A stretch of DNA of 32,000 nt, from positions 3,630,001 to 3,662,000 of the forward strand of contig CP178758.1 in the NCBI GenBank assembly GCA_047651235.1, given 5' to 3'. The DNA comes from Candidatus Electrothrix yaqonensis. GTDB lineage: Bacteria > Desulfobacterota > Desulfobulbia > Desulfobulbales > Desulfobulbaceae. The first letter of the stretch is position 1. Every line of letters begins with the position of its first letter. The notes under the pieces are model-generated. The model was not told the DNA's origin. It was given only the letters and a program-made list of their open reading frames with translations, and did no database searches. Below are positions 1,480 to 29,678 of the stretch, in pieces. A program made the translations under genes and the position numbers.

Positions 1480-1697
1480 ATTTTCCTGCAGCCCGACCGG
1501 ACCTGCGGTATTGGAAAAATTTGAAATTATGGGAGAGCGGTACACTTGTCAACCACCCTGCAGGACGACACATCTTACTCTATAAAGCGGCAAATCCGGA
1601 AGTTATTTTCTTCACGTTTCCGTTTTCCTTATCTGAATTTTTTGCTAACTTAAAAAGTTATCTCAGTGCATCGACTCGAAAATTGAGGAAAGCAGAT

Positions 1698-3047
1698 ATG
1701 GGAGCGCTGTCCAGGGCAAAAAAAGAGAAATATACCTGCTATCAACAACAGCTGCAAAGCCGATGTGAGCAGCAGCACGAATTACTGCGGCGACTGCAGA
1801 GAGATCACGCCATTGTTACTGATCCTGCCGTCAAATTCGAGCGGGAGCAACAGATTGAAGCTGCCCGGAGCGAATGTAAGCAGATCAGGCATGACCTGAG
1901 CCTGCTGGAAGATGCGCTGCGGACTGGTGATGACAGCAGAGTGCCTGCGCGATATCAACGTAAGCCCAAGGCTGAAAGCCCAGCCCGGCAGAACCTGCTG
2001 ACTCTGCTGCAGGGGGTCAAATCCGCCTGGATTGAGGGCGTGCTGAAACAATCCCTGCATAACGAGGTACTGATCGAACTGCGCAAAACCCAGGAGGACG
2101 ATGCCGTCGATCGGCTGGAGCAGCCCCTGAACCTCAGCCTGGATAAGCCTGATGCGTCAGAAGAGACCATACTGCTTGATGAGGATATTCAGGAAACTTA
2201 TGAAGAGGCGGGAGGTACTCTGCTGATTCTCGGCGCACCGGGTGCCGGCAAAACCATTTCCCTACTCGATTTAACCCGCCGTCTGGCCAATGATGCTGTG
2301 TTTGATTCCGACCAGCCCATTCCGGTGGTCTTCAACCTTTCTTCATATACAGATAAACGGCAATCGCTGGCAGACTGGCTGGTGGATGAGCTGTGGGCCA
2401 AATACCGCATTCCCACCAAAATAGGGCGAAAGTGGATTGAAGATACGGAGCGGCGACCGCTTGTCCTGATGCTGGATGGTCTGGATGAGGTGGCGGAAGA
2501 TCTCCGTCCGGCCTGTGTGCAGGCTGTGAATTCCTATCGGGAGCAATATGCCCTGCGCGGCATTGTGGTGGCCTGCCGTCATCGGGAATACCGGGAGATT
2601 TCGGGCAAGCTCAAACTGGAGCAGGCCCTGTGTGTTCAACCGCTGACAGACCGGCAGGTTGAAGACTACCTGACCGGTGGCGGTGAGGAATTAGCCGGGT
2701 TGCACGCGGCCCTGCCTGCGGATGAGGGATTCCGGGAGCTGGCCCGTTCTCCCCTGATTCTGAGTATGATGTGCCTGGCCTACCGGGATCAGCCGGTTGA
2801 AACGATTCTTCAGGATGTGGCCGGGACAGCCGAGACCCGGCAGCCCAAGCTCTTTGCTGCCTATGTGCAGAGCATGTTCCGGCGGCCACGCAGCGGGGTT
2901 GAATACGAAGAGGAAAAGACCCGCCGCTGGCTGACCTTTTTGGCGTACAATATGCAGAAGCATGGACAGACCATCTTTCAGATAGAAAACCTTCAGCCGA
3001 GCTGGCTGCTGACAAAAGGTGGGTATAGCTGGAGCAACATAATTTGA
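1698..3047 (+). CDS. NACHT-family STAND NTPase with a coiled-coil-like N-terminus; appears C-terminally truncated or split
   Basis: Walker A LILGAPGAGKT and Walker B LVLMLDGLDEV with NACHT-type spacing, followed by winged-helix-like sequence. The start is placed at ATG 1698 (GAGGA 6-7 nt upstream) rather than the tracked 1521, which overlaps murD. The ORF ends right after the motif IENLQPSWLL, with no sensor or repeat domain. Confidence 0.8.
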   Translation: MGALSRAKKEKYTCYQQQLQSRCEQQHELLRRLQRDHAIVTDPAVKFEREQQIEAARSECKQIRHDLSLLEDALRTGDDSRVPARYQRKPKAESPARQNLLTLLQGVKSAWIEGVLKQSLHNEVLIELRKTQEDDAVDRLEQPLNLSLDKPDASEETILLDEDIQETYEEAGGTLLILGAPGAGKTISLLDLTRRLANDAVFDSDQPIPVVFNLSSYTDKRQSLADWLVDELWAKYRIPTKIGRKWIEDTERRPLVLMLDGLDEVAEDLRPACVQAVNSYREQYALRGIVVACRHREYREISGKLKLEQALCVQPLTDRQVEDYLTGGGEELAGLHAALPADEGFRELARSPLILSMMCLAYRDQPVETILQDVAGTAETRQPKLFAAYVQSMFRRPRSGVEYEEEKTRRWLTFLAYNMQKHGQTIFQIENLQPSWLLTKGGYSWSNII

Positions 3048-3542: not shown

Positions 3543-4040
3543 TCCAAGACTTTTAGTAGACTCTCATTTATGAGGCCTTATAGAAAATCATCGTACAACG
3601 TACATGACTTGAAAGTTCACCTGATTTGGATAACAAAATATCGTTACAAAGTGTTAAGTAAAGATATAAGTATTCGAATCAGAGAGATAATACGCCGAAT
3701 ATGTGATTCGAAAGATATTCAAATTATCAAAGGGAATATCAGTCAGGATCATGTCCATATCTATGTGTCATATCCTCCCAAAATATCCGTGAGTGAAATG
3801 GTGCGATTTTTCAAGGGTCGCTCTTCAAAAAAGATTCAGGAAGAATTTCCTCAACTGTCCAGAAGATACTGGGGAAAACATTTTTGGGGTATTGGCTGCG
3901 TTGCTTTGAGTTCCGGACACGTTACTGATGAAATGATACGGAATTATATTGAAAATCACAGAAATGACCCAAATCATAATAATGACGATTTTAAGATAGA
4001 ATAACGACTTTCAGTCGTTACACACTGACTTGAGTCAGCG
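3530..4040 (+). mobile_element. IS200/IS605-family insertion sequence (tnpA only)
   Basis: A Y1 HUH transposase gene is flanked by subterminal hairpins that share a GACT..AGTC core: GGACTttAGTCC (3534-3545), AACGACTttcAGTCGTT (4003-4019) and CTGACTtgAGTCAG (4025-4038). The element is AT-rich relative to its neighbours. Confidence 0.8.
3570..4004 (+). CDS. tnpA: IS200/IS605 family transposase TnpA (Y1 HUH)
   Basis: 144 aa. Contains the HUH motif (DHVHIYV) and a C-terminal catalytic Tyr region (MIRNYIENH), plus the typical LIWITKYRYKVL N-terminus. Confidence 0.92.
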   Translation: MRPYRKSSYNVHDLKVHLIWITKYRYKVLSKDISIRIREIIRRICDSKDIQIIKGNISQDHVHIYVSYPPKISVSEMVRFFKGRSSKKIQEEFPQLSRRYWGKHFWGIGCVALSSGHVTDEMIRNYIENHRNDPNHNNDDFKIE

Positions 4041-7384: not shown

Positions 7385-7710
7385 TTACTGTCGCCAGCGA
7401 CTGATGAACCCTCCACTTTCTGCAGAAATACCTGCAGTTCAGGTGAACTGGATTGAGCTGAACCTGAACGCTGCAGCGTGATAGCGGCATCACCCTCCCA
7501 CACCATTCCCAATTCTGACCGAACAGAATCGTCCTGCGCATAAGTGCGTCCAGCTTTTTCTACAAAGAGCTACAACCGGTATTTTGGCTGCAGGCACCCT
7601 CATGAAGCGCATGTTTGGGCGCCAGTAAATCTTCTTATAAAAAATTAAATATTAAATAGAGAACATACCCCTTCCGTCTAATATTATTTTCGATTCAGAG
7701 TATTTTTTTC

Positions 7711-7739
7711 TTGACGCCGTATTTAATATTTTATATCTT
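7711..7739 (+). promoter_or_regulatory. Sigma70-like promoter with an AT-rich UP-like element
   Basis: TTGACG, 17 nt, TATCTT. It is preceded by AAAAAATTAAATATTAAATA and conserved in copy 2. This is a sequence prediction only. Confidence 0.4.
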
Positions 7740-7820
7740 AAGATAAAGAGAAGCTATATCGGTCATTCATTATCCGGCTGCAGCAGCTCAATTTACGAAC
7801 ATAAAAAACTACATAATTCT

Positions 7821-7994
7821 ATGGCAGCGCTTATTCAGTAATAAGTAGGCACCGTGCTTTCCGGTCAGAAACGGAAAGCTGAATAAAGCCACAACCGTCG
7901 CGAGGCGGTGTCGGAAAACTACGGGTCTCCAGAGAGGAGACAGCCGGGTTACCTGCTTTTTCCATTTCACTTTTATACCGGGAGGTAAGTTATG
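7821..7994 (+). promoter_or_regulatory. Conserved structured 5' leader (candidate cis-regulatory RNA or riboswitch), copy 1
   Basis: By my reading it is 100% identical to 12965..13138. Hairpins: CTTATT/AATAAG; GCTTTCCG-GTCAGAAA-CGGAAAGC (7856-7879); CCGTC-GCGA-GGCGG (7895-7908, GNRA loop); GTCTCC-AGAGA-GGAGAC (7925-7941). These are followed by AGCCGGGTTACC and then GGGAGG-N6-ATG (7992). Confidence 0.45.
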
Positions 7995-8247
7995 AAATCT
8001 CCAAAAACAGTATCCCGCCACATTATCTGCCCCCCTTCAAGCTGTACCGGCAGATTTTTCCCTTTATTTTTTAAAAAAAGGAATTGTAGTTTCGCCGATT
8101 CGTTGAGCACCCGCTGCTGCGGATCAGCATAACTATACTTTTCTATACTTTTTGATCGTTTGTTTTTCTGAACAAAAAACTGTGCCTGTAACTGTTATCT
8201 GCACAACCCGACAATAGCTATCCTTATTAACAAGGAGGAGAGATCGA

Positions 8248-11200
8248 ATGAAAAAAAATACATTAACCGCATTATGCCTGGCATCATTGATGCTTACCGC
8301 ATCTGCTGCCCAGGCTCAAGAGACAGCGGATACCGCGAGCTGTGAGACAGCATATGCCTTTGGCAGCAGGGCATTGAGTGAAATTCCCGACCTCAAAAAT
8401 GCACGATGGGGATGGGAAATTATCCTGAACGGAAACGATGCATTAGTTACATCGATTTATGCCGGTGCCGGAGGGGAAGATACCACAAAAGGAGCCTATA
8501 TAGGCGATCTTCGGATTGACAGAAATGACGATCTGGTCACCCTGCAGCTCGATATACTGGAGGGAATATCTCTCAGCGAAACGCATATTTATGTAGGAAC
8601 AGAGGATGTCCCCACAACAGCAAATGGAGGATATGCAAGCCTTACGCAGCAGATAGGAAGACTCGATTCATACGGCAACGGCCTGTATAAAGTTCAACTG
8701 AATGACGAGACCCTCAATGTCGATAAGCTGTATGTTGTTGTTCATCTTAACGCGTGCAAAGGCGGCGATGATCCAAACACAAACACGGAATGCGGTGCCG
8801 ACAGCCCGTGGAAAGGACCGTGGGACAATGCTGTAGAATACAAATCAGGTGATGTTGTTGGATATGAAGGCAGCAGCTATGTCAACGTCTGCTGCGAGGA
8901 GACACCAAGCATAGCAGGCATAGCACCTACTGCCGACTTGTTCGATCCTTTTACTGAGGAAGGTTGCTGGAAACTCGTAGCTGAGAAAGGCGAGCAGGGT
9001 CCTGAAGGCCCCGAAGGTCCGCAGGGTGAAACCGGTCTGACTGGCGATACAGGTCCGCAGGGTCCGATTGGTCCGGTAGGCCCGCAGGGTGATCAGGGTG
9101 AAGTTGGTCCGCAGGGTCCGATTGGTCCGGTAGGTCCGCAGGGTGAAACCGGTCTGACTGGCGATACAGGTCCGCAGGGTCCGATTGGTCCGGTAGGCCC
9201 GCAGGGTGATCAGGGTGAAGTTGGTCCGCAGGGTCCGATTGGTCCGGTAGGTCCGCAGGGTGAAACCGGTCTGACTGGCGATACAGGTCCGCAGGGTCCG
9301 ATTGGTCCGGTAGGTCCGCAGGGTGAAACCGGTCTGACTGGCGATACAGGTCCGCAGGGTCCGATTGGTCCGGTAGGCCCGCAGGGTGATCAGGGTGAAG
9401 TTGGTCCGCAGGGTCCGATTGGTCCGGTAGGTCCGCAGGGTGATCAGGGTGAAGTTGGTCCGCAGGGTCCGATTGGTCCGGTAGGTCCGCAGGGTGAAAC
9501 CGGTCTGACTGGCGATACAGGTCCGCAGGGTCCGATTGGTCCGGTAGGTCCGCAGGGTGAAACCGGTCTGACTGGCGATACAGGTCCGCAGGGTCCGATT
9601 GGTCCGGTAGGCCCGCAGGGTGATCAGGGTGAAGTTGGTCCGCAGGGTCCGATTGGTCCGGTAGGCCCGCAGGGTGAAACCGGTCTGACTGGCGATACAG
9701 GTCCGCAGGGTCCGATTGGTCCGGTAGGCCCGCAGGGTGATCAGGGTGAAGTTGGTCCGCAGGGTCCGATTGGTCCGGTAGGTCCGCAGGGTGAAACCGG
9801 TCTGACTGGCGATACAGGTCCGCAGGGTCCGATTGGTCCGGTAGGTCCGCAGGGTGAAACCGGTCTGACTGGCGATACAGGTCCGCAGGGTCCGATTGGT
9901 CCGGTAGGCCCGCAGGGTGATCAGGGTGAAGTTGGTCCGCAGGGTCCGATTGGTCCGGTAGGTCCGCAGGGTGAAACCGGTCTGACTGGCGATACAGGTC
10001 CGCAGGGTCCGATTGGTCCGGTAGGCCCGCAGGGTGATCAGGGTGAAGTTGGTCCGCAGGGTCCGATTGGTCCGGTAGGTCCGCAGGGTGAAACCGGTCT
10101 GACTGGCGATACAGGTCCGCAGGGTCCGATTGGTCCGGTAGGTCCGCAGGGTGAAACCGGTCTGACTGGCGATACAGGTCCGCAGGGTCCGATTGGTCCG
10201 GTAGGCCCGCAGGGTGAAACCGGTCTGACTGGCGATACAGGTCCGCAGGGTCCGATTGGTCCGGTAGGTCCGCAGGGTGAAACCGGTCTGACTGGCGATA
10301 CAGGTCCGCAGGGTCCGATTGGTCCGGTAGGCCCGCAGGGTGATCAGGGTGAAGTTGGTCCGCAGGGTCCGATTGGTCCGGTAGGTCCGCAGGGTGAAAC
10401 CGGTCTGACTGGCGATACAGGTCCGCAGGGTCCGATTGGTCCGGTAGGCCCGCAGGGTGATCAGGGTGAAGTTGGTCCGCAGGGTCCGATTGGTCCGGTA
10501 GGCCCGCAGGGTGAAACCGGTCTGACTGGCGATACAGGTCCGCAGGGTCCGATTGGTCCGGTAGGCCCGCAGGGTGATCAGGGTGAAGTTGGTCCGCAGG
10601 GTCCGATTGGTCCGGTAGGTCCGCAGGGTGAAACCGGTCTGACTGGCGATACAGGTCCGCAGGGTCCGATTGGTCCGGTAGGTCCGCAGGGTGAAACCGG
10701 TCTGACTGGCGATACAGGTCCGCAGGGTCCGATTGGTCCGGTAGGCCCGCAGGGTGATCAGGGTGAAGTTGGTCCGCAGGGTCCGATTGGTCCGGTAGGT
10801 CCGCAGGGTGAAACCGGTCTGACTGGCGATACAGGTCCGCAGGGTCCGATTGGTCCGGTAGGCCCGCAGGGTGATCAGGGTGAAGTTGGTCCGCAGGGTC
10901 CGATTGGTCCGGTAGGTCCGCAGGGTGAAACCGGTCTGACTGGCGATACAGGTCCGCAGGGTCCGATTGGTCCGGTAGGTCCGCAGGGTGAAACCGGTCT
11001 GACTGGCGATACAGGTCCGCAGGGTCCGATTGGTCCGGTAGGCCCGCAGGGTGAAACCGGTCTGACTGGCGATACAGGTCCGCAGGGTCCGATTGGTCCG
11101 GTAGGTCCGCAGGGTGAAACCGGTCTGACTGGCGATACAGGTCCGCAGGGTCCGATTGGTCCGGTAGGCCCGCAGGGTGATCAGGGTGAAGTTGGTCCGC

Positions 11201-12111
11201 AGGGTCCGATTGGTCCGGTAGGTCCGCAGGGTGAAACCGGTCTGACTGGCGATACAGGTCCGCAGGGTCCGATTGGTCCGGTAGGCCCGCAGGGTGATCA
11301 GGGTGAAGTTGGTCCGCAGGGTCCGATTGGTCCGGTAGGTCCGCAGGGTGAAACCGGTCTGACTGGCGATACAGGTCCGCAGGGTCCGATTGGTCCGGTA
11401 GGCCCGCAGGGTGATCAGGGTGAAGTTGGTCCGCAGGGTCCGATTGGTCCGGTAGGTCCGCAGGGTGAAACCGGTCTGACTGGCGATACAGGTCCGCAGG
11501 GTCCGATTGGTCCGGTAGGCCCGCAGGGTGATCAGGGTGAAGTTGGTCCGCAGGGTCCGATTGGTCCGGTAGGCCCGCAGGGTCCGAAAGGTGATACCGG
11601 CGAATACCCGTTAGGTCAGTGTGACTTCGGTCAGATTCTAACCGGTTTTAATTCCAACGGTCCAATCTGCGAAGACATACCGGTCAACCTGATTGGCGGC
11701 TGCGAAACAGCCTTCGCTCACGGTGATAGAACATTGAATTCCTTCCTTGATACAAACCGGTGGGGATGGGAGATCACTGTAAATCCAGGACAAACGAAGA
11801 CAGGTATCCCGATTTATGCCGGAGCGGGACAGAATGACACCAGCAAGGGAACCCAGGTAGGCGAACTGACTGTAGCCTACACAGGAAACACGGTAACCGT
11901 TACCTACACCATGACAGCAGATGAGATCATCATGAAGGAAACCCATCTGTATGTGGGTGAGGAAAGTGTCACAACTGCAGCACCTGGCCAGTACGGTCTG
12001 CAGGATGAAGGTTTGCTCAATGCAACCACTGATAGCTATACAGTAACTGTCAGCGGCACAAAGTCGGTCAAGGTCGTCGCTCATGCTGTAACCTGTACAA
12101 AAGCGGACTAA
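8248..12111 (+). CDS. Giant secreted collagen-like (Gly-X-Y) protein with the same Cys-bracketed globular domain at both ends
   Basis: 1287 aa. AAGGAGGAG lies upstream of the ATG. Signal peptide: [24 protein letters not shown]-terminal domain 8341-8757. A CBM5/12-like W..W..Y..GDVV.Y.GSSY segment follows. There are 873 uninterrupted G-X-Y residues (8989-11607), then a Cys knot [19 protein letters not shown], then the C-terminal domain 11701-12096. Confidence 0.9.
9025..11580 (+). repeat. In-frame tandem array of 43 units: 26 of 63 nt ([22 protein letters not shown]) and 17 of 54 nt ([19 protein letters not shown])
   Basis: All unit boundaries were checked against the sequence. The order is ABABAABBAABABAABABAAAABABABAABABAAAABABABAB. 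Units of one type are almost identical; the only variation seen is GGC/GGT at one Gly codon. Blocks 9790-10626 and 10627-11463 are an 837-bp duplicate pair. Confidence 0.95.
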
Positions 12112-12144
12112 CAGCGCAGACTGACGGTTAGGATTAAAGCGAAA

Positions 12145-12176
12145 GGAGCAGATCCGAAAGGGTCTGCTCCTTTTTT
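12145..12176 (+). terminator. Rho-independent terminator of collagen-like gene 1
   Basis: GGAGCAGATCC-GAAA-GGGTCTGCTCC followed by TTTTTT. Confidence 0.8.
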
Positions 12177-12178
12177 GG

Positions 12179-12345
12179 TTCCGGTAACTGCCTGCGGCAG
12201 CTTCGCTTTACTTTGACACTGAGAAGTATGTTCCGACCGCCGCCTGAATTTACAGCTTCAAGTAAAACTCAGTGCGGCGTATTTGATGAGATACTGCAGG
12301 TTGCTGCATTGGGTAAAGAAGATAATATGTGATGGAGCCAGAAGG
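12179..12345 (+). repeat. Downstream cassette module, copy 1
   Basis: Matches 16704..16882. Only 3 substitutions in the first ~148 nt (GTTCCGGTAACTGCCTGCGGCAGC...GGGTAAAGAAGAT); identity decays after that. Confidence 0.9.
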
Positions 12346-12631: not shown

Positions 12632-12853
12632 TAAAGCTGTTTGAAAAACATGCTTCTAACAATACAGTTTCCGGGATAGATGTTGCAACCGGTATTTTGA
12701 CTGCAGGCAGCCTTATGGACCGTATGGTTGAGCATCAGTAAATCTTCTGTATTTTGCCAAGGTTACGTATCCTGAATATATAAAAAATTAAATATTAAAT
12801 AGAGAACATACCCCTTCCGTCTAATATTATTTTCGATTCAGAGTATTTTTTTC

Positions 12854-12882
12854 TTGACGCCGTATATAATATTTTATACTTT
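12854..12882 (+). promoter_or_regulatory. Sigma70-like promoter, copy 2
   Basis: TTGACG, 17 nt, TACTTT, with the same UP-like AT tract as copy 1. Confidence 0.35.
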
Positions 12883-12964
12883 TAAGATAAAGAGAAGCTG
12901 TATCGGTCATTCATTATCCGGCTGCAGCAGCTCAATTTACGAACATAGAAAACTACATAACTCT

Positions 12965-13138
12965 ATGGCAGCGCTTATTCAGTAATAAGTAGGCACCGTG
13001 CTTTCCGGTCAGAAACGGAAAGCTGAATAAAGCCACAACCGTCGCGAGGCGGTGTCGGAAAACTACGGGTCTCCAGAGAGGAGACAGCCGGGTTACCTGC
13101 TTTTTCCATTTCACTTTTATACCGGGAGGTAAGTTATG
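12965..13138 (+). promoter_or_regulatory. Conserved structured 5' leader, copy 2
   Basis: Identical to 7821..7994 and ends at the same SD-ATG (13136). Downstream sequence diverges after the codons MKSP. Confidence 0.45.
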
Positions 13139-13558
13139 AAATCCCCACCAGCAGTATTCAACCGTAGTATCCCTTCAGTCGTACCCGTAGGTCTTCCGAC
13201 CGCAGACCGCAGTTCCTGTCTTCTTCCTGTTCAGTCAGGAAAGAAATCTCAGTCTGATTATCAGGACAATGCCGAGTACCGGCACGTCCGACTCAGCCTA
13301 TACTGTTCTTCGGTATAATCTGAGCTTTTACAGAGGCTGAGCTGCAGCTTTAATTTAAATTTAATTCATTAACGAACAGGAGAGTACGACCCCGGAAAAA
13401 CGCGATGTATTCCGGTGACACTCCGTATTTTTCAGCTTTGTTTTTAAAAAGAACAGACCCTTAATCCGTCTGAATAGGATCATACCGACTTTTTGATCTG
13501 TACAGATAAACTAATCCCCTGCCTCAGTAAGAGGCAAATAAAAAAAAGAGGAATGATA

Positions 13559-16500
13559 ATGAAGAGAAAAAACGTGTTGACAGCGTTATGTCTGGCATCT
13601 CTGATGCTTACCGCGTCTGCTGTCCAAGCAACAGGCCCCACTGAGCAGGAACTGCAAGCTTGCAATGAAGCAAAGAATATTGAAGATTGCAAGGAGCATG
13701 TGAGGGAGCTGGCGAAGGCTCGGGAAGAGAAGTTGAAGCAGAAAGAGCTGGACCGGGAAGAGAAGCTGAAACAGAAAGAGCTGGACCGGGAAGAAAAGCT
13801 GAAACAGAAAGAGCTGGACCGGGAAGAAAAGCTGAAACAGAAAGAGCTGGACCGGGAAGAGAAACTGAAGCAGAAAGAGCAGGAGTGGGTGAAGAAGAAG
13901 GAGGAGGAGTGCGAGAATCCTAAGGAGAAACCTAAGGATAAGCCTAAGAACCCCCCTAATGACAACCCTGGTCAGAAGCCTACGGCCGGGAAGGATTGCC
14001 AGACGGCGTATGCCTTTGGAGACCGGACAGATGCCAATCCTAATGATGCGGCAGTATATCAATCCGCTGACGGAGAGCTTGATACTTATCTGGGAGATCA
14101 GGTGCTTAACGAGTTGCCGGGTCTCAAGCCGAATCGGTGGGGATGGATGCTTTCCATCTTTAATGGGGATGAGTTTACTGTACCGATCTATGCCGGTGCC
14201 GGAAAAAACGATATTGCAAGGGGCACCCATGTTGGAAATCTGACAGTTATCTACAAGGAAGGTCTGTTAACCGTATCTTTTGGTATGTTTGAAGGATTTT
14301 CTTTGAATGGAAGCCATTTGTACGTAAATAACGGAATAAATGACGGAGAGGAGCATGTGCCCACCTCCGCACCGGGCAGATATGATGACTACAGTATAGG
14401 AAACCGGACATTCGATTCCGCTACAGATACATATACCGTGGATCTTGGAACAGCAGACTTTCCATCTTCTTTATATATTGCTGTTCATAGCGTAGTTTGC
14501 GAAGGAGAACAAGGTGGAGGACAAGGCGGAGGAGGAGACTGCACTATATGCCCGGCAGGGCCGAAAGGTGAGAAAGGTGATCCGGGTATCCAAGGCCTCG
14601 AAGGTCCGCAGGGTCCGATTGGCCTGACTGGTCCGGAAGGCCCGGAAGGCCCGCAGGGTATCCAGGGTGAAACAGGCCCGGAAGGCCCCGCAGGTCCGCA
14701 GGGTCCGATTGGCCTGACTGGTCCGATAGGCCCCGAAGGCCCGCAGGGTATCCAGGGTGAAACAGGCCCGGAAGGTCCCGCAGGTCCGATAGGTCCGGAA
14801 GGCCCGCAGGGTATCCAGGGTGAAACAGGCCCGGAAGGCCCCGCAGGTCCGATAGGTCCCGAAGGTCCGAAAGGCAAAAAGGGCAAAAAAGGTGATCCGG
14901 GCATCCAAGGTCCTGAAGGCCCGACTGGTCCGGAAGGCCCGCAGGGTATCCAGGGTGAAACAGGCCCGGAAGGTCCCGCAGGTCCGATAGGCCCGGAAGG
15001 CCCGCAGGGTATCCAGGGTGAAACAGGCCCGGAAGGCCCCGCAGGTCCGATAGGTCCCGAAGGTCCGAAAGGCAAAAAGGGCAAAAAAGGTGATCCGGGC
15101 ATCCAAGGTCCTGAAGGCCCGACTGGTCCGGAAGGCCCGCAGGGTATCCAGGGTGAAACAGGCCCGGAAGGTCCCGCAGGTCCGATAGGCCCGGAAGGCC
15201 CGCAGGGTATCCAGGGTGAAACAGGCCCGGAAGGCCCCGCAGGTCCGATAGGTCCCGAAGGTCCGAAAGGCAAAAAGGGCAAAAAAGGTGATCCGGGCAT
15301 CCAAGGTCCTGAAGGCCCGACTGGTCCGGAAGGCCCGCAGGGTATTCAGGGTGAAACAGGCCCGGAAGGCCCCGCAGGTCCTCAGGGTCCGATTGGCCTG
15401 ACTGGTCCGGAAGGTCCCGAAGGTCCGCAGGGTCCGATTGGCCTGACCGGTCCGGAAGGCCCCGCAGGTCCGCAGGGTCCGATTGGCCTGACTGGTCCGG
15501 AAGGTCCCGAAGGTCCTCAGGGTCCGATTGGCCTGACTGGTCCGGAAGGCCCCGCAGGTCCTCAGGGTCCGATTGGCCTGACTGGTCCGGAAGGTCCCGA
15601 AGGTCCGCAGGGTCCGATTGGCCTGACCGGTCCGGAAGGCCCCGCAGGTCCGCAGGGTCCGATTGGCCTGACTGGTCCGGAAGGTCCCGAAGGTCCGCAG
15701 GGTCCGATTGGCCTGACTGGTCCGGAAGGTCCCGAAGGTCCGCAGGGTCCGATTGGCCTGACTGGTCCGGAAGGTCCCGAAGGTCCGATTGGCCTGACTG
15801 GTCCGGAAGGTCCCGAAGGTCCGCAGGGCATCCAGGGTGAAAAGGGCGACAAAGGTGATCCTGGCCAGGTAGTAATTAATGTCGGTAACTGTCCAGAAAA
15901 TCAGGTTATGACGGGTATTACCGTCGTGGATGGAGAATTAAGAGTAATCTGCGAGGAGTTCTGCAACTTCACCTGCAGCAGCCAGCCTGTCTGCGGCAAT
16001 GGCATTAAGGAGACAGGTGAAGAGTGTGACGACGGAAACATTTTGAATGGAGACGGTTGTTCCTCTACCTGCACCGATGAGCCAACAGGTGATATTCAGC
16101 CCGGAGACTTCCGGACACAGACGCAGGGCGGATGGGGCCAGGACGAATGCAATGGCGGCAATCCTGCATGCTACCGCAACGATAACTTCGACACATGTTT
16201 CAGCAACGGCCTGATCGTCGGTGACCCGGATGGTCCTGACAGCGACACTTCGTACGCACTCGAACTGACATCATCGGCAGCGGTAGCAGGTTCCCTGCCA
16301 GCTGGCGGTTCCTCCAAGGCACTTACTGCGGACTTCACTGATCCCGGTAACTTGAACCAGATAACAGGTGTATTGGGCGGACAGCTCGTAGCCGCCACGC
16401 TCAGCGTGACGTTCGACAGGTGCGACACCGATTTCGGAGCCAGCAATGAAGAACTCGGCAACTTGGTCTATGCTGCGAGTGCATGTATTAATATGACGGT

Positions 16501-16645
16501 TGATCAGGTGCTTGCTGAAGCGAATACGATCATCAGCGGTGGCGCAAGTACCTTCACCCCAAGCCAGATCAGTGATTGTCTGGCCACCCTGAATGAGTGC
16601 TTCGTGGACGGAACTCAGACGTGCAATAATTTTGTACTGCCGTAA
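13559..16645 (+). CDS. Secreted multidomain collagen-like protein (charged repeats, Cys-bracketed domain, 438-aa G-X-Y region, Cys-rich repeat, C-terminal domain)
   Basis: The start is set at ATG 13559 (AGAGGA 6 nt upstream) because this gives [24 protein letters not shown], parallel to gene 1. The tracked ORF begins at 13493. Layout: [11 protein letters not shown] x5, a PK-rich linker, the domain at 13997-14500, G-X-Y at 14558-15871, then [27 protein letters not shown], then about 185 aa of C-terminal domain. Confidence 0.9.
13721..13885 (+). repeat. Five tandem 33-nt in-frame repeats encoding [11 protein letters not shown]
   Basis: Units begin at 13721, 13754, 13787, 13820 and 13853. The last is degenerate ([11 protein letters not shown]). 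Confidence 0.9.
14558..15871 (+). repeat. Collagen-like G-X-Y coding repeats with 198-bp and 90-bp higher-order periods
   Basis: There are 146 uninterrupted triplets. GGTCCGAAAGGCAAAAAGGGCAAAAAAGGT ([10 protein letters not shown]) recurs at 14864, 15062 and 15260, a 198-bp period. [30 protein letters not shown] (90 nt) repeats from about 15379 to 15780. Confidence 0.9.
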
Positions 16646-23531: not shown

Positions 23532-24899
23532 TCAGATGTGTTTCCTCGGCACAAAACGCCAGACCGGACTCATCACCGAAGAATACACCTCCTTGGTAAA
23601 GTTGAGCATTCCTTCAAAGCCTGCCAGAGCCTCTTTGCGTTCGTGGTTATGGTCGCAGAAGCCGATGCCCAGTTTGTAGGCAATGGGCCGTTCTTTGACC
23701 CCGCCGACAAAGATATCCACGCCTTTTTCCTTGAGGAAACTGTTCAGCTCCAGCGGGTTGGCATCGTCTACAATAACCGTGCCCGGATCGGTGATCGCCT
23801 CCAGCTCTCGATAGTCCTCTTCTGTACCGGTCTGCGACCCGACCATGACCACGTCCATGTCCACCAGTCGGAAGGCCTTGACCAAGGAAAATGCCTTGAA
23901 CGAACCTCCTACGTAAATGGCTGCCTTTTTTCCGGCCAGAGCCTTGCGGTATTTCTCCAGCTTGGGCACCAGCTCGCTTACTTTTTCCTGCACCAGGGCC
24001 TTGGTCCGCTCCATGATCCGGTCCGCTTCCGGATCATCCGGGTACTTATTCTGAAAAAAACGGGCAATATCGTACAGAGCCTCGGACATATCCTCAATAC
24101 CGAAATAGGAGACCCGCAGCGAAGGTACGCCGTATTGCTCCTCCATCATATTGGCCAGCTGCATGGTGGAGCCGGAGCACTGGACTACGTTCAGCCCGGC
24201 ACCGTGCGCCCGGCGGATATCATCCACCCGGCCGTCACCGGTGATATTGGCCACCACCTCCAGGCCCATCCGTTCATAATACTCCCGGATCATCCATATC
24301 TCGCCTGCCAGGTTGAAGTCGCCGAGGATATTCAGGGAAAACTTGGAAATACCGCCTGTATCACCGGTGCCGATCAGCCGGAACATGGCATCACAGGCTG
24401 CCTGATAGCCTGCCCGTTTGTTGCCTTTGAAACCCTCTGACTGCACCGGAATCACCGGAATGCCGGTCTCCGCAGCTACTTCCTTACAGACTGCCTCCAG
24501 ATCATCACCGATAATCCCGACAATGCAGGTGGAATAGACAAAAGTGGCCTTGGGACTGTGCCGTTCAATCAGTTCCAGCAGGGCGCGGCGCAGCTTTTTT
24601 TCTCCGCCGAAAATGACATCGATTTCCTGAAGGTCCGTGGAAAAGGAAAGCCGGTGCAGTTCCGGGCCGGAGGACAGGGCACCCCGGATATCCCAGGTGT
24701 AGACTGCGCAGCCGATAGGGCCATGCACCAGATGCAGGGCATCAGCAATGGGATACAGCACCACCCGCGAGCCGCAGAATACGCAGGCCCGCTGGCTGAC
24801 TGCCCCGGCCAGACTGTCCTTGTTGCAGACAATATTGAAGGGTTTCTCCCCTTTGACGTAAATCTGATCTTCGCGTTCTTTTAAGGCAACTGCTTCCAT
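23532..24899 (-). CDS. Nitrogenase component-I-like protein, NifE/NifD family (orphan)
   Basis: From memory it aligns along its length with NifE: HLVHGPIGCA, FVYSTCIVGIIGDD, NVVQCSGS, and C-terminal CDHNHERKEALAGFEGM. The start is set at ATG 24899 (AAGGAG 5 nt upstream) rather than the tracked 24983. Confidence 0.8.
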   Translation of the reverse strand: MEAVALKEREDQIYVKGEKPFNIVCNKDSLAGAVSQRACVFCGSRVVLYPIADALHLVHGPIGCAVYTWDIRGALSSGPELHRLSFSTDLQEIDVIFGGEKKLRRALLELIERHSPKATFVYSTCIVGIIGDDLEAVCKEVAAETGIPVIPVQSEGFKGNKRAGYQAACDAMFRLIGTGDTGGISKFSLNILGDFNLAGEIWMIREYYERMGLEVVANITGDGRVDDIRRAHGAGLNVVQCSGSTMQLANMMEEQYGVPSLRVSYFGIEDMSEALYDIARFFQNKYPDDPEADRIMERTKALVQEKVSELVPKLEKYRKALAGKKAAIYVGGSFKAFSLVKAFRLVDMDVVMVGSQTGTEEDYRELEAITDPGTVIVDDANPLELNSFLKEKGVDIFVGGVKERPIAYKLGIGFCDHNHERKEALAGFEGMLNFTKEVYSSVMSPVWRFVPRKHI

Positions 24900-24939
24900 G
24901 ATGCTCCTTGGTTTGAATCTACGGATTATTTTATGGTTA

Positions 24940-24956
24940 TGCAGATATCGTGCCGG
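24940..24956 (-). promoter_or_regulatory. Sigma54 (-24/-12) type promoter upstream of the nifE-like gene
   Basis: The minus strand reads CCGGCACGATATCTGCA, which matches TGGCAC-N5-TTGC at the GG and GC dinucleotides with correct spacing. It ends about 40 nt upstream of the ATG. Confidence 0.45.
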
Positions 24957-25419
24957 GCAGGCGTCCTGCGGCTTGTCATACAATTTTCGCAGGTTGCAGT
25001 ACAGAAGGGAAGCAAGGGAAGAACAAACGCTACATGATCACTACATTTATGTCAAAAAAGCGGCATGAGTGAAACGTCCCATATTTATTCTTGTTTCATC
25101 CTTGTCAATCAGTCCGACATATCCAAGTATATCCATCAACCCTGTGCAGCGGGTTTGCCCCGAAATTCCTTCTGTCCGACAGTCGGCCGTACAGCTCTAC
25201 GGCGCGGAACAATCATACTGCAATTATACTGCAGGCAGGACGGAATCTTCCTCGCCTTAAACCAAAAGTCATCGGATTCTGCTTGCTTCCATCGGTGTAC
25301 GGGGTACAATGGACAAAGTGAAAACAGACCGTACAAAGCAGCCTGTTCACCTGCTGCTGAAGGTCAGGTGAGAATCAGGGGCTGACGGAACAATTATTTT
25401 TAGAATCTCAGGAGAAGGT

Positions 25420-28226: not shown

Positions 28227-29678
28227 ATGTTGCGCGAACACAGCAAGTTGCTGACCGGAATCCATATGACGGCGGATATTTTTCAAGTCGCACTTGCTTT
28301 TATTGCAGCGTATTATTTGAAAAAAAATTTTCCTTTTGCCGATGGACAGGGGCTTTCAACAGAACCGAATTATTATCTGGTGCTTCTGGTCGCCGCCGTG
28401 CTTTCTTCTTTTATCTTTCGTCTGACAGGGTGTTACAGGTCATACCGGATACAATCCCAGTTTCAGATCCATCTGAGAACAATCAAAGCGGTTTCCGGCA
28501 TTTTTGTCGGCACAATTCTCGCTCTTTTTCTCCTGCATGAAAATAATGTCAGCAGGATGCTGCTTGCCCTTTTTGCGGCCATCCTGACCGGGTTCCTGCT
28601 GCTGAGCAAGAGCATAATTTATTATACCCTCCGGCATTATCGCGCTAGAAGCTACAATACCCGCAATATCCTCATTATCGGCACAGACCGACGGGCCGAA
28701 CGGATTATTAGATCGATTCAGCAGCATAAAGGTACAGGCTACCAGCTCCTTGGTTGCCTGCGGCCATACCAAGACAGCACCGGGCAGCCTGAACGTTCTG
28801 ATGCAAAGGAAAAAAATATGCGTATTCTCGGTTCGGTCACTGCGTTACCTCTCATCCTGACCGAAAGAATTGTCGATGAAGTTGTCTTTGCCGCTGATAT
28901 AGGTCGGATTGAACATGTGCATGAATATATTCAGTTTGCGGAATCCATAGGTGTCAATATCCATATTGTTCCTGATTTTCAGCTGGAAAAGATCATGTAT
29001 CAGCCTGAAATCGCTTCCGTCTCCCTGCAGGATTTTGTCGGCTTTCCGACCCTTGCTCTGTCCACAACGTCTCAGCGGCAGAACGCTCTGCTTGTCAAAG
29101 AAATTATGGATTATCTTGTTGCCGGCAGCGGACTCATTCTTCTCTCTCCGTTCTTTCTGCTGATTATGCTGCTTATTAAAGCGACGTCCGAGGGACCTGC
29201 CTTTTTTATCCAGCAGCGTTGCGGTCTGCACGGTCGTACTTTTCCCCTGATCAAATTCCGCACTATGGTCAATAACGCTGAAAAACTCCGCAAGACCTTG
29301 GAACAGAAAAATGAAGTTGACGGCCCGGTCTTCAAAATCAGCAATGACCCACGAGTCACCCGGGTCGGCAGATTTCTCCGCAGAACAAGCATAGATGAAT
29401 TGCCCCAGTTGCTGAATGTCCTCCTGGGCCATATGAGTCTGGTCGGCCCGCGCCCGCCCCTTCCTGCAGAGGTCCGGAAATATGAGCCGTGGCAGCGCCG
29501 ACGCCTGTCCATGAAACCGGGGCTCACCTGCACCTGGCAGGTCAACGGGCGCAATAATGTTACATTTGACCGCTGGATGCGCCTGGATCTGGAATATATT
29601 GACAACTGGTCTCTGAGGCTGGATATTAAGATTCTCCTGAAAACCATGAAGGAAGTTATCACCCTGCATGGTCAATAA
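28227..29678 (+). CDS. Exopolysaccharide polyprenyl glycosylphosphotransferase (WbaP/EpsB-type initiating sugar transferase)
   Basis: 483 aa. N-terminal TM helices are followed by a C-terminal bacterial sugar-transferase domain (SEGPAFFIQQRCGLHGRTFPLIKFRTM, DELPQLLNVLLGHMSLVGPRP). Confidence 0.88.
   Translation: MLREHSKLLTGIHMTADIFQVALAFIAAYYLKKNFPFADGQGLSTEPNYYLVLLVAAVLSSFIFRLTGCYRSYRIQSQFQIHLRTIKAVSGIFVGTILALFLLHENNVSRMLLALFAAILTGFLLLSKSIIYYTLRHYRARSYNTRNILIIGTDRRAERIIRSIQQHKGTGYQLLGCLRPYQDSTGQPERSDAKEKNMRILGSVTALPLILTERIVDEVVFAADIGRIEHVHEYIQFAESIGVNIHIVPDFQLEKIMYQPEIASVSLQDFVGFPTLALSTTSQRQNALLVKEIMDYLVAGSGLILLSPFFLLIMLLIKATSEGPAFFIQQRCGLHGRTFPLIKFRTMVNNAEKLRKTLEQKNEVDGPVFKISNDPRVTRVGRFLRRTSIDELPQLLNVLLGHMSLVGPRPPLPAEVRKYEPWQRRRLSMKPGLTCTWQVNGRNNVTFDRWMRLDLEYIDNWSLRLDIKILLKTMKEVITLHGQ

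Follow-up and report, generated by a model that had tools for sequence, protein, structure and literature searches.

A stretch of 32,000 nucleotides (nt) from the cable bacterium Candidatus Electrothrix yaqonensis YB6 (CP178758.1, positions 3,630,001 to 3,662,000 of the forward strand) was analysed; it is referred to below as the window, and coordinates are counted from its first base. The window carries two collagen-like genes in the same orientation, each with an aptamer of the cyclic di-GMP (c-di-GMP) riboswitch class upstream of it. The first of them, gene 1, encodes a protein of 1287 amino acids (aa), most of which is specified by a tandem array of 43 short, nearly identical DNA units. 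An exact-sequence look-up of the gene 1 product returned no record. The genome is closed and was obtained from a clonal enrichment (Hiralal et al. 2025, PMC12093952).

The repeat array of gene 1

The array was resolved by parsing the translation of the open reading frame (ORF) at 8248-12111. This gave 43 in-frame units over 2556 nt, 26 of a 63-nt type (A) and 17 of a 54-nt type (B), in the same order as had been proposed in an earlier reading of the sequence alone. That reading had also claimed a single variable codon, and we likewise found only two nucleotide variants of each unit type, distinguished by GGC or GGT in the last glycine codon. The two blocks that it had described as duplicates (9790-10626 and 10627-11463, 837 nt each) were confirmed to differ at one position only, C at 10503 and T at 11340. 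Its description of the unit order as non-periodic did not hold, as shifting the phase by one unit resolved the array into three higher-order repeats of 14 units each, followed by one remaining unit (Table 1).

Self-comparison at a shift of 837 nt extended the identity beyond the duplicated blocks, from 9520-10682 against 10357-11519, and this alignment includes an exact stretch of 983 nt. The order of units in the first higher-order copy departs from that of the second only at units 7-9, and the second and third copies differ at two instances of the variable GGC/GGT base. All three copies share an exact match of 365 nt (9025-9389, 9853-10217 and 10690-11054). Tandem Repeats Finder (TRF) reported overlapping arrays over 9015-11583 with periods of 117, 180 and 297 nt and scores above 3000. 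With such scores and a 983-nt exact internal repeat, a chance origin of the repeats is not an issue.

The repeats are organised hierarchically, from the 9-nt triplet to the unit of 54 or 63 nt, the 117-nt AB dimer and the 837-nt block. Units A and B have a common core of 36 nt and differ in a type-specific head, which is 27 nt long in A (encoding GETGLTGDT) and 18 nt long in B (encoding GDQGEV). Every unit is thus a multiple of 9 nt and contains the same core, so that unequal exchange would preserve the Gly-X-Y frame. Only 13 codons are used in the array, and none of them specifies Lys or Arg. In-frame, near-identical tandem DNA repeats are the hallmark of genes of the variable-number tandem repeat (VNTR) type, and they are present here as 43 units with one variable site.

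The state of the variable base followed the type of the next unit, with GGT before A and GGC before B at 37 of 42 junctions (Fisher p = 5e-7); concordance with the type of its own unit was weaker (32 of 43). As the base is linked to the following unit, the natural, evolutionary register of the units would start at 9016, 9 nt before the array as parsed. The base is discordant at units 7, 11, 20, 25 and 34, and these five junctions are best read as probable scars of crossover or conversion.

Table 1. Features of the collagen-like locus, in window coordinates
Feature	Position	Strand	Basis or remark
43-unit A/B array	9025..11580	+	TRF, unit parsing, self-comparison
Higher-order repeat copy 1, 14 units, 828 nt	9025..9852	+	Units 7-9 are B-B-A, not A-A-B
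Higher-order repeat copy 2, 14 units, 837 nt	9853..10689	+	
Higher-order repeat copy 3, 14 units, 837 nt	10690..11526	+	Differs from copy 2 at 11340 and 11520
Terminal lone B unit	11527..11580	+	Unit parsing
Collagen-like gene 1, 1287 aa, carries the array	8248..12111	+	ORF, translation, Pfam Collagen PF01391 (E 3.1e-129)
Putative Sec-type signal peptide, cleavage before QE	8248..8319	+	Read by eye from the translation
N-terminal beta-sandwich domain, Cys32-Cys170, ~140 aa	8341..8757	+	Homology to C-terminal domain, alignments
CBM5/12-type carbohydrate-binding-like module, ~60 aa (aa 186-247)	8803..8988	+	Directly before the collagen region
Uninterrupted Gly-X-Y region, aa 248-1120	8989..11607	+	873 aa, 291 triplets (regular expression on translation)
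Cys-loop linker (C1125...C1141), conserved in orthologues	11608..11700	+	Alignment, Cys positions
C-terminal beta-sandwich domain, Cys1152-Cys1283, ~140 aa	11701..12096	+	
Paralogous collagen-like gene 2	13553..16645	+	1.4 kb downstream of gene 1
c-di-GMP-I aptamer (RF01051) before gene 1	7878..7956	+	Rfam 55 bits, gathering threshold 35, E 2.6e-8
Second c-di-GMP-I aptamer, identical to the first	13022..13100	+	Upstream of gene 2
Regulatory cassette of gene 1	7636..8005	+	Repeat search, pairwise alignment
Regulatory cassette of gene 2, ~370 nt	12779..13150	+	~98% identical to the 7636-8005 cassette
Candidate sigma-70-like promoter TTGACG-17-TATCTT	7711..7739	+	Consensus scan, 9/12 matches

Domains of the product, gene 2 and the riboswitch cassettes

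A long, uninterrupted Gly-X-Y tract defines bacterial collagen-like proteins, and the gene 1 product has one of 291 consecutive triplets with a strong match to the Pfam collagen family (Table 1). Proline occupies X positions exclusively and fills 176 of the 291 (60%), which is compatible with a predicted triple helix. The region is acidic, with 91 acidic residues and one basic residue, and the computed pI of the mature protein is ~4.05; its 79 threonines all lie in the Y position. If the region folds as a triple helix, standard collagen geometry (0.286 nm per residue over 873 aa) predicts a rod of ~250 nm, and length increments of 5.1-6.0 nm for each unit and ~80 nm for each block. Non-collagenous domains that are predicted to be globular flank the collagen region at both ends. 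The N-terminus of the protein is kept in its orthologue, in the paralogue encoded by gene 2 and in other collagen-like proteins of the Desulfobulbaceae.

The domains at the two ends of the protein are homologous to one another (BLASTP E 2e-22, 44% identity), and the domain of the paralogue belongs to the same group (E 2e-27). Scans of Pfam and NCBIfam assigned them to no family, and a profile of the C-terminal domain matched no PDB sequence at E<=1. AlphaFold2 modelled this domain as an all-beta fold of 12 strands (predicted local distance difference test, pLDDT, 86), for which Foldseek returned nothing at E<1e-3 from PDB or BFVD, the best template modelling (TM) score against PDB being 0.33. 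Among 1.84 billion representative proteins, a profile search recovered 3641 members of the family at E<=1e-3, of which 715 reach E<=1e-30. The locus exposes a large beta-sandwich family (>3600 representatives) that matches no Pfam or NCBIfam model. Most members are two-domain proteins of ~330-360 aa, some carry up to 13 copies of the domain, and the aligned relatives start with N-termini that resemble signal peptides. The terminal domain itself reads CETAFA...RWGW...IYAGAGQND...ETHLYVG...AHAVxC, with two bracketing cysteines. The long members that were scanned bear sorting tails of the type IX secretion system (T9SS) or HYR-like, VWD, DUF11 and CARDB modules, which, judged by domain content, are cell-surface contexts.

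The module that precedes the collagen region resembles carbohydrate-binding modules (CBM) of families 5 and 12, for which the aromatic motif W..W..Y..GD.V.Y.G..Y of chitin-binding domains served as the criterion. Its direct match to Pfam CBM_5_12 was below threshold (18.7 bits against a cut-off of 26.2, E 0.0018). A profile built from five homologues matched the carbohydrate-binding repeats of the NodB-homology deacetylase 8yh4 (E 4.7e-6) and of chitin oligosaccharide deacetylases (E ~5e-6). It also matched chitinase A1 in its chitin-binding domain (1ED7, E 1.5e-5). The junction between this module and the collagen region is common to phage tail-fibre families, with a match to phrog_5073 (E 1.2e-9).

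Gene 2, whose start (MIMKRK) was placed by alignment of the signal peptides, encodes a signal peptide and beta-sandwich domain of the gene 1 type, a collagen region of 438 aa and a Cys-rich C-terminus of the myxo_disulf_rpt/DUF4215 type. It has tandem arrays of its own: five copies of a 33-nt repeat (11 aa) at 13721-13884, 3.3 copies of a 198-nt repeat at 99% identity at 14735-15381, and 10.6 copies of a 45-nt repeat at 15362-15828. Basic GKKGKKG clusters were also noted in its product. Exchange between the arrays of genes 1 and 2 was considered and rejected, as the longest stretch of DNA that they share is 22 nt.

Both aptamers align to the full RF01051 model (positions 1-87) and exceed its gathering threshold by the same 20 bits, 55 against 35. 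Each is embedded in a regulatory cassette. While the two cassettes are ~98% identical, divergence between the coding regions of genes 1 and 2 is much greater (the signal peptides, for example, share 79% identity), which suggests that the cassette was recently copied or converted. The base at model position 11 of the aptamer is G. In what we take to be the Vc2 numbering, this base is the equivalent of G20, and both it and the equivalent of C92 are kept, which would favour c-di-GMP over cyclic GMP-AMP (cGAMP) as the ligand. From these aptamers and their near-identical cassettes, we infer that both genes are controlled by c-di-GMP.

A perfect 8-bp hairpin, GCTTTCCG GTCAGAAA CGGAAAGC, lies at 7855-7878 (+), and the hairpin is found directly 5' of each aptamer within the conserved cassette. 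The candidate promoter listed in Table 1 is retained in the second cassette with TATACT as its -10-like element, and promoter-like sites in the region were no more numerous than in shuffled sequences. The leader downstream of the aptamer did not fold better than shuffles (minimum free energy z = -0.95), and a scan of the leader revealed no convincing terminator on the + strand after the aptamer. A small upstream ORF after the aptamer (7992-8132) was rejected as a gene, as its conservation between the cassettes extends over only ~5 codons.

Relatives in other cable bacteria and the surrounding genes

The N-terminal region of gene 1 has its best homologue, at 58% identity, in a protein from Ca. 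Electronema halotolerans. A profile search of genome contigs (alignment A2) retrieved this species only, and the same contigs searched with a single protein query yielded nothing. In metagenome contigs, the C-terminal domain alignment found one truncated contig; a degenerate pattern of unit A gave 0 matches and hence no other allele.

The E. halotolerans locus (OW818675.1) has the architecture of gene 1 with a collagen region of ~7.6 kb (150 + 1227 + 843 = 2220 residues), 2.6-fold longer than that of YB6. Four main unit types (39, 36, 21 and 33 aa) make up its array of ~62 units, with a core of its own, GAQGPQGEVGPIGPQ. An insertion sequence (IS) of the IS630 family lies inside the collagen array at 11186-12232 of this locus (DDE_3 and HTH_Tnp_IS630, TA target duplication), and a 1-nt insertion at ~15914 shifts the frame in this long-read sequence. 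The latter may be a sequencing error. From its sequence the orthologue is probably inactive. There was no synteny between the flanks of the YB6 and E. halotolerans loci.

Across YB6, two further Electrothrix (AUS1_2 and EH2) and E. halotolerans, the C-terminal domain keeps 82-83% identity, compared with the 58% of the N-terminal region. Genome-wide amino-acid identity is 69-76% (PMC12093952), and the excess of the C-terminal domain over this value points to strong constraint on the domain. The arrays themselves behave differently. The longest contiguous array DNA shared with the orthologue is 18 nt, and with the paralogue it is the 22 nt given above. Units are nearly identical within each array, the unit alphabet changes from one array to another, and the flanks are conserved; together, these features argue for concerted evolution within the array. 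The sequence-only reading had proposed very recent expansion or ongoing concerted evolution, and had suggested comparison of unit order with related genomes. The near-identical higher-order copies and the scarcity of shared array DNA support that proposal, and so does the comparison with E. halotolerans, whose orthologue is built from four other unit types.

The same reading had named the region as a candidate for assembly collapse or expansion, and on this point the support is indirect: short-read contigs of the homologues are cut at the array, and the long-read orthologue contains the 1-nt frameshift. Except for E. halotolerans, all homologues came from short-read assemblies. The Electrothrix AR3 contig runs out within Gly-X-Y repeats, that of Electrothrix AUS1_2 begins inside an array of 63-nt units, and two further contigs (L004 and L005) begin 15 nt and 175 nt, respectively, before the C-terminal domain. 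With orthologues broken in every recovered short-read assembly of cable bacteria, the gene family is systematically under-reported. No riboswitch was found upstream of the AUS1_2 homologue.

Sugar-nucleotide genes lie beside the collagen-like gene in two relatives, an epimerase/dehydratase gene in AR3 (80-1054 of contig L002, - strand) and an RmlA-like NTP_transferase gene in AUS1_2 (1238-2113 of contig L003, + strand). These neighbours recall the rhamnose operon that adjoins bclA. The nearest sugar gene in the YB6 window encodes a Bac_transf sugar transferase (28227-29678).

Neighbouring genes in the window include those for aconitase, AsnB, Mla proteins, a DUF533 protein and the sugar transferase. 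In exact-sequence look-ups, the aconitase, AsnB, the DUF533 protein, the sugar transferase and an IS200 transposase were identical to YB6 proteins. Upstream of the collagen locus are a NACHT/STAND NTPase gene (1521-3047, + strand) and an IS200/IS605 transposase gene (3570-4004, + strand), the latter ~4 kb from gene 1. Six further YB6 proteins fall into the 90% cluster of this transposase, which points to an IS-rich genome. A gene for an oxidoreductase of the nitrogenase component 1 type (23532-24983, - strand; PF00148, E 8e-103) lies beside the Mla transport genes, with no recognisable nif cluster around it in the 32-kb window.

Interpretation and comparison with known systems

We consider it likely that the array is the stalk-coding DNA of a secreted, dumbbell-shaped collagen-like protein of YB6, that it expanded in a frame-safe manner and that it is under c-di-GMP control. 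Cores, AB dimers and 14-unit blocks could each take part in homologous exchange, slipped or unequal, by which units would be gained or lost while the frame is kept. Such exchange would have made the array uniform and, recently, turned one 14-unit block into three. As a trimer, the product would form an acidic rod of ~250 nm, with its length quantised in steps of ~5-6 nm per unit and ~80 nm per block. The ends of the rod would be formed by the same beta-sandwich domain twice, with the CBM5/12-type module at the N-terminal junction. The dumbbell domains and this module suggest a cross-linking or spacing fibre located at the cell surface or in the extracellular matrix, and c-di-GMP-dependent expression would couple the protein to a matrix or sheath lifestyle. 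Riboswitch control fits a role in adhesion, matrix or sheath. Tuning of fibre length by the number of repeats is a reasonable expectation; it is established for BclA and Lcl, and is not new.

Several points weigh against this interpretation. Gain or loss of units leaves no visible trace in the sequence, and the 43-unit count is therefore that of the published assembly. Ongoing length variation is a prediction, and the proposed triple helix, the route of secretion, the eventual location and any glycosylation of the protein are deduced from sequence. The terminal domain is, by the database comparisons above, one with no characterised relative. Furthermore, no riboswitch was found upstream of the E. 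halotolerans and AR3 homologues, and the E. halotolerans orthologue is disrupted by the IS630 element. Among cable bacteria, therefore, neither a need for the gene nor this mode of regulation is universal.

Among the alternatives, the array may be young yet static, with one recent triplication having become fixed and with neither meaningful length heterogeneity nor a tuning function. The species is represented by a single genome, nothing in the analysis points to variation within the species, and the search of metagenome contigs for unit A retrieved no other allele. However, exact repeats of 365-983 nt are well established as strong substrates for homologous recombination, the length of the region differs 2.6-fold between genera, and BclA and Lcl vary between strains. 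We regard a static array as unlikely.

It is also conceivable that the array is real but that its exact length and its third copy are products of assembly or polishing, through repeat resolution by Flye or homogenisation by Racon and Pilon. The YB6 genome was assembled with Flye from Oxford Nanopore (ONT) R10.4.1 reads (34.4 Gb after filtering), and polished with one round of Racon and one round of Pilon with 150-nt Illumina reads (PMC12093952). With shared cores and unit lengths divisible by 9 nt, the gain or loss of whole units during assembly would be traceless; the 150-nt reads could not be placed uniquely among exact repeats of 983 nt, and the orthologues break every short-read assembly that was recovered. 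Against this, the array spans only 2.6 kb, the filtered R10.4.1 long reads of the clonal enrichment amount to 34.4 Gb, and the frame is intact across 3.9 kb. Some of the discordant GGC/GGT states also occur in recurring contexts, where majority polishing with short reads would be expected to erase them. An artefact of this kind thus appears quite improbable.

A third alternative places the protein in the shared periplasm, where it would act structurally, as a spacer or ruler for the apparatus of ridge, fibre or cartwheel. Only a Sec signal was found in the product, and its translation and Pfam matches contained no outer-membrane or secretion motif; moreover, the predicted rod of ~250 nm is near the unusually wide ridge compartment of YB6 (228 +/- 39 nm, PMC12093952). 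This match in length is a single coincidence, however, and the family of the terminal domain occurs with T9SS tails and adhesin modules, while proteins of the surface or matrix are those that typically have a CBM5/12 module and control by c-di-GMP. The orthologue is also IS-disrupted in E. halotolerans, which is a conductive cable bacterium. There is, in our judgement, very little chance that the protein is a periplasmic ruler. Finally, the gene could be what is left of a prophage tail-fibre gene that had collagen-like repeats. This would agree with the phrog_5073 match at the CBM-to-collagen junction and with the IS200 transposase 4 kb upstream, but it was rejected on gene context, with no phage genes in 32 kb and neighbours such as aconitase, Mla and AsnB. 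In addition, the beta-sandwich domains match no PHROG, the gene has a Sec signal peptide and a riboswitch leader, and orthologues occur across cable bacteria.

The secreted, dumbbell-shaped protein that we favour may be viewed beside the extracellular sheaths of YB6, which are abundant, non-conductive, composed of 'undefined nanofibers' and 219 +/- 30 nm thick, and whose composition its authors state to be unknown (PMC12093952). The predicted rod (~250 nm), the sheath and the ridge compartment are of similar size when the lengths are set side by side. A link between the gene and the sheath is plausible but unproven. In its fullest form, in which the two riboswitch-controlled dumbbell proteins would be the nanofibres or spacers of the sheath and the array a ruler adjustable by recombination, we would give the idea only a slim chance.

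Spore-formers and pathogens are well known to carry collagen-like repeat genes whose length sets that of the fibre, and the array itself is no surprise. What is new is the setting, a cable bacterium with abundant sheaths, as such genes have been undescribed in cable bacteria. Our full-text literature searches found no paper connecting cable bacteria with collagen-like proteins or with c-di-GMP riboswitches, and no report of a c-di-GMP riboswitch before a collagen-like gene; the description of the YB6 genome mentions neither collagen-like genes nor c-di-GMP nor riboswitches (PMC12093952). The locus offers testable candidates for the sheath, in the form of two secreted collagen-like proteins with domains of sugar-binding and surface type under one second-messenger switch.

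The closest parallels are found among surface proteins with Gly-X-Y repeats. In BclA, the glycoprotein of the exosporium nap of Bacillus anthracis and B. cereus, the strain-specific number of repeats sets the length of the nap filaments, according to a passage of PMC10470788 that cites Sylvestre 2003. BclA resembles the gene 1 product in its Gly-X-Y tandem array, which is strain-variable in BclA, and in its globular C-terminal domain. Its Thr-rich Gly-X-Thr triplets are O-glycosylated, and the 79 threonines in Y positions of the YB6 protein recall these by analogy only. In contrast to the YB6 protein, BclA is a spore protein of Gram-positive bacteria that is anchored to BxpB by its N-terminus and trimerised by a C1q/TNF-like C-terminal domain; such a trimerisation domain, which defines the BclA family, was not recognised in the YB6 protein, whose C-terminal domain matches no sequence or fold in PDB. 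The YB6 protein differs further in its repeated end domain, its CBM5/12 module, its Sec signal and its riboswitch control, and its predicted rod is several-fold longer.

For Lcl of Legionella pneumophila, a correlation has been reported between the number of repeats and adhesion, auto-aggregation and biofilm formation (PMC6460258). Like the gene 1 product, Lcl belongs to a Gram-negative organism and has a signal peptide, a VNTR-type Gly-X-Y domain and a C-terminal domain with no known homologues, and its binding to sulphated polysaccharides parallels the sugar-binding-type module of YB6. The Lcl alleles studied in PMC6460258 contain 11-18 units, whereas the 43 units of the YB6 array are of two types and form a hierarchy of three levels. 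Lcl is also set apart by its description, as neither a dumbbell architecture nor a c-di-GMP riboswitch has been reported for it.

Scl1 and Scl2 of Streptococcus pyogenes and the collagen-like proteins (PCL) of Pasteuria are similarly surface-located, with Gly-X-Y regions of variable length and a non-collagenous head. The Pasteuria fibres are reportedly polymorphic and are said to mediate attachment. These proteins differ from that of YB6 in being Gram-positive, in their sortase or spore anchoring and in their other terminal domains. With respect to regulation, the nearest parallel is with the genes of the CD2831 type in Clostridioides difficile, where the leader of a gene for a surface or matrix protein contains a c-di-GMP riboswitch (PMC6447587). 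As described there, however, the riboswitch-regulated proteins of C. difficile bind collagen, whereas those of YB6 are themselves collagen-like.

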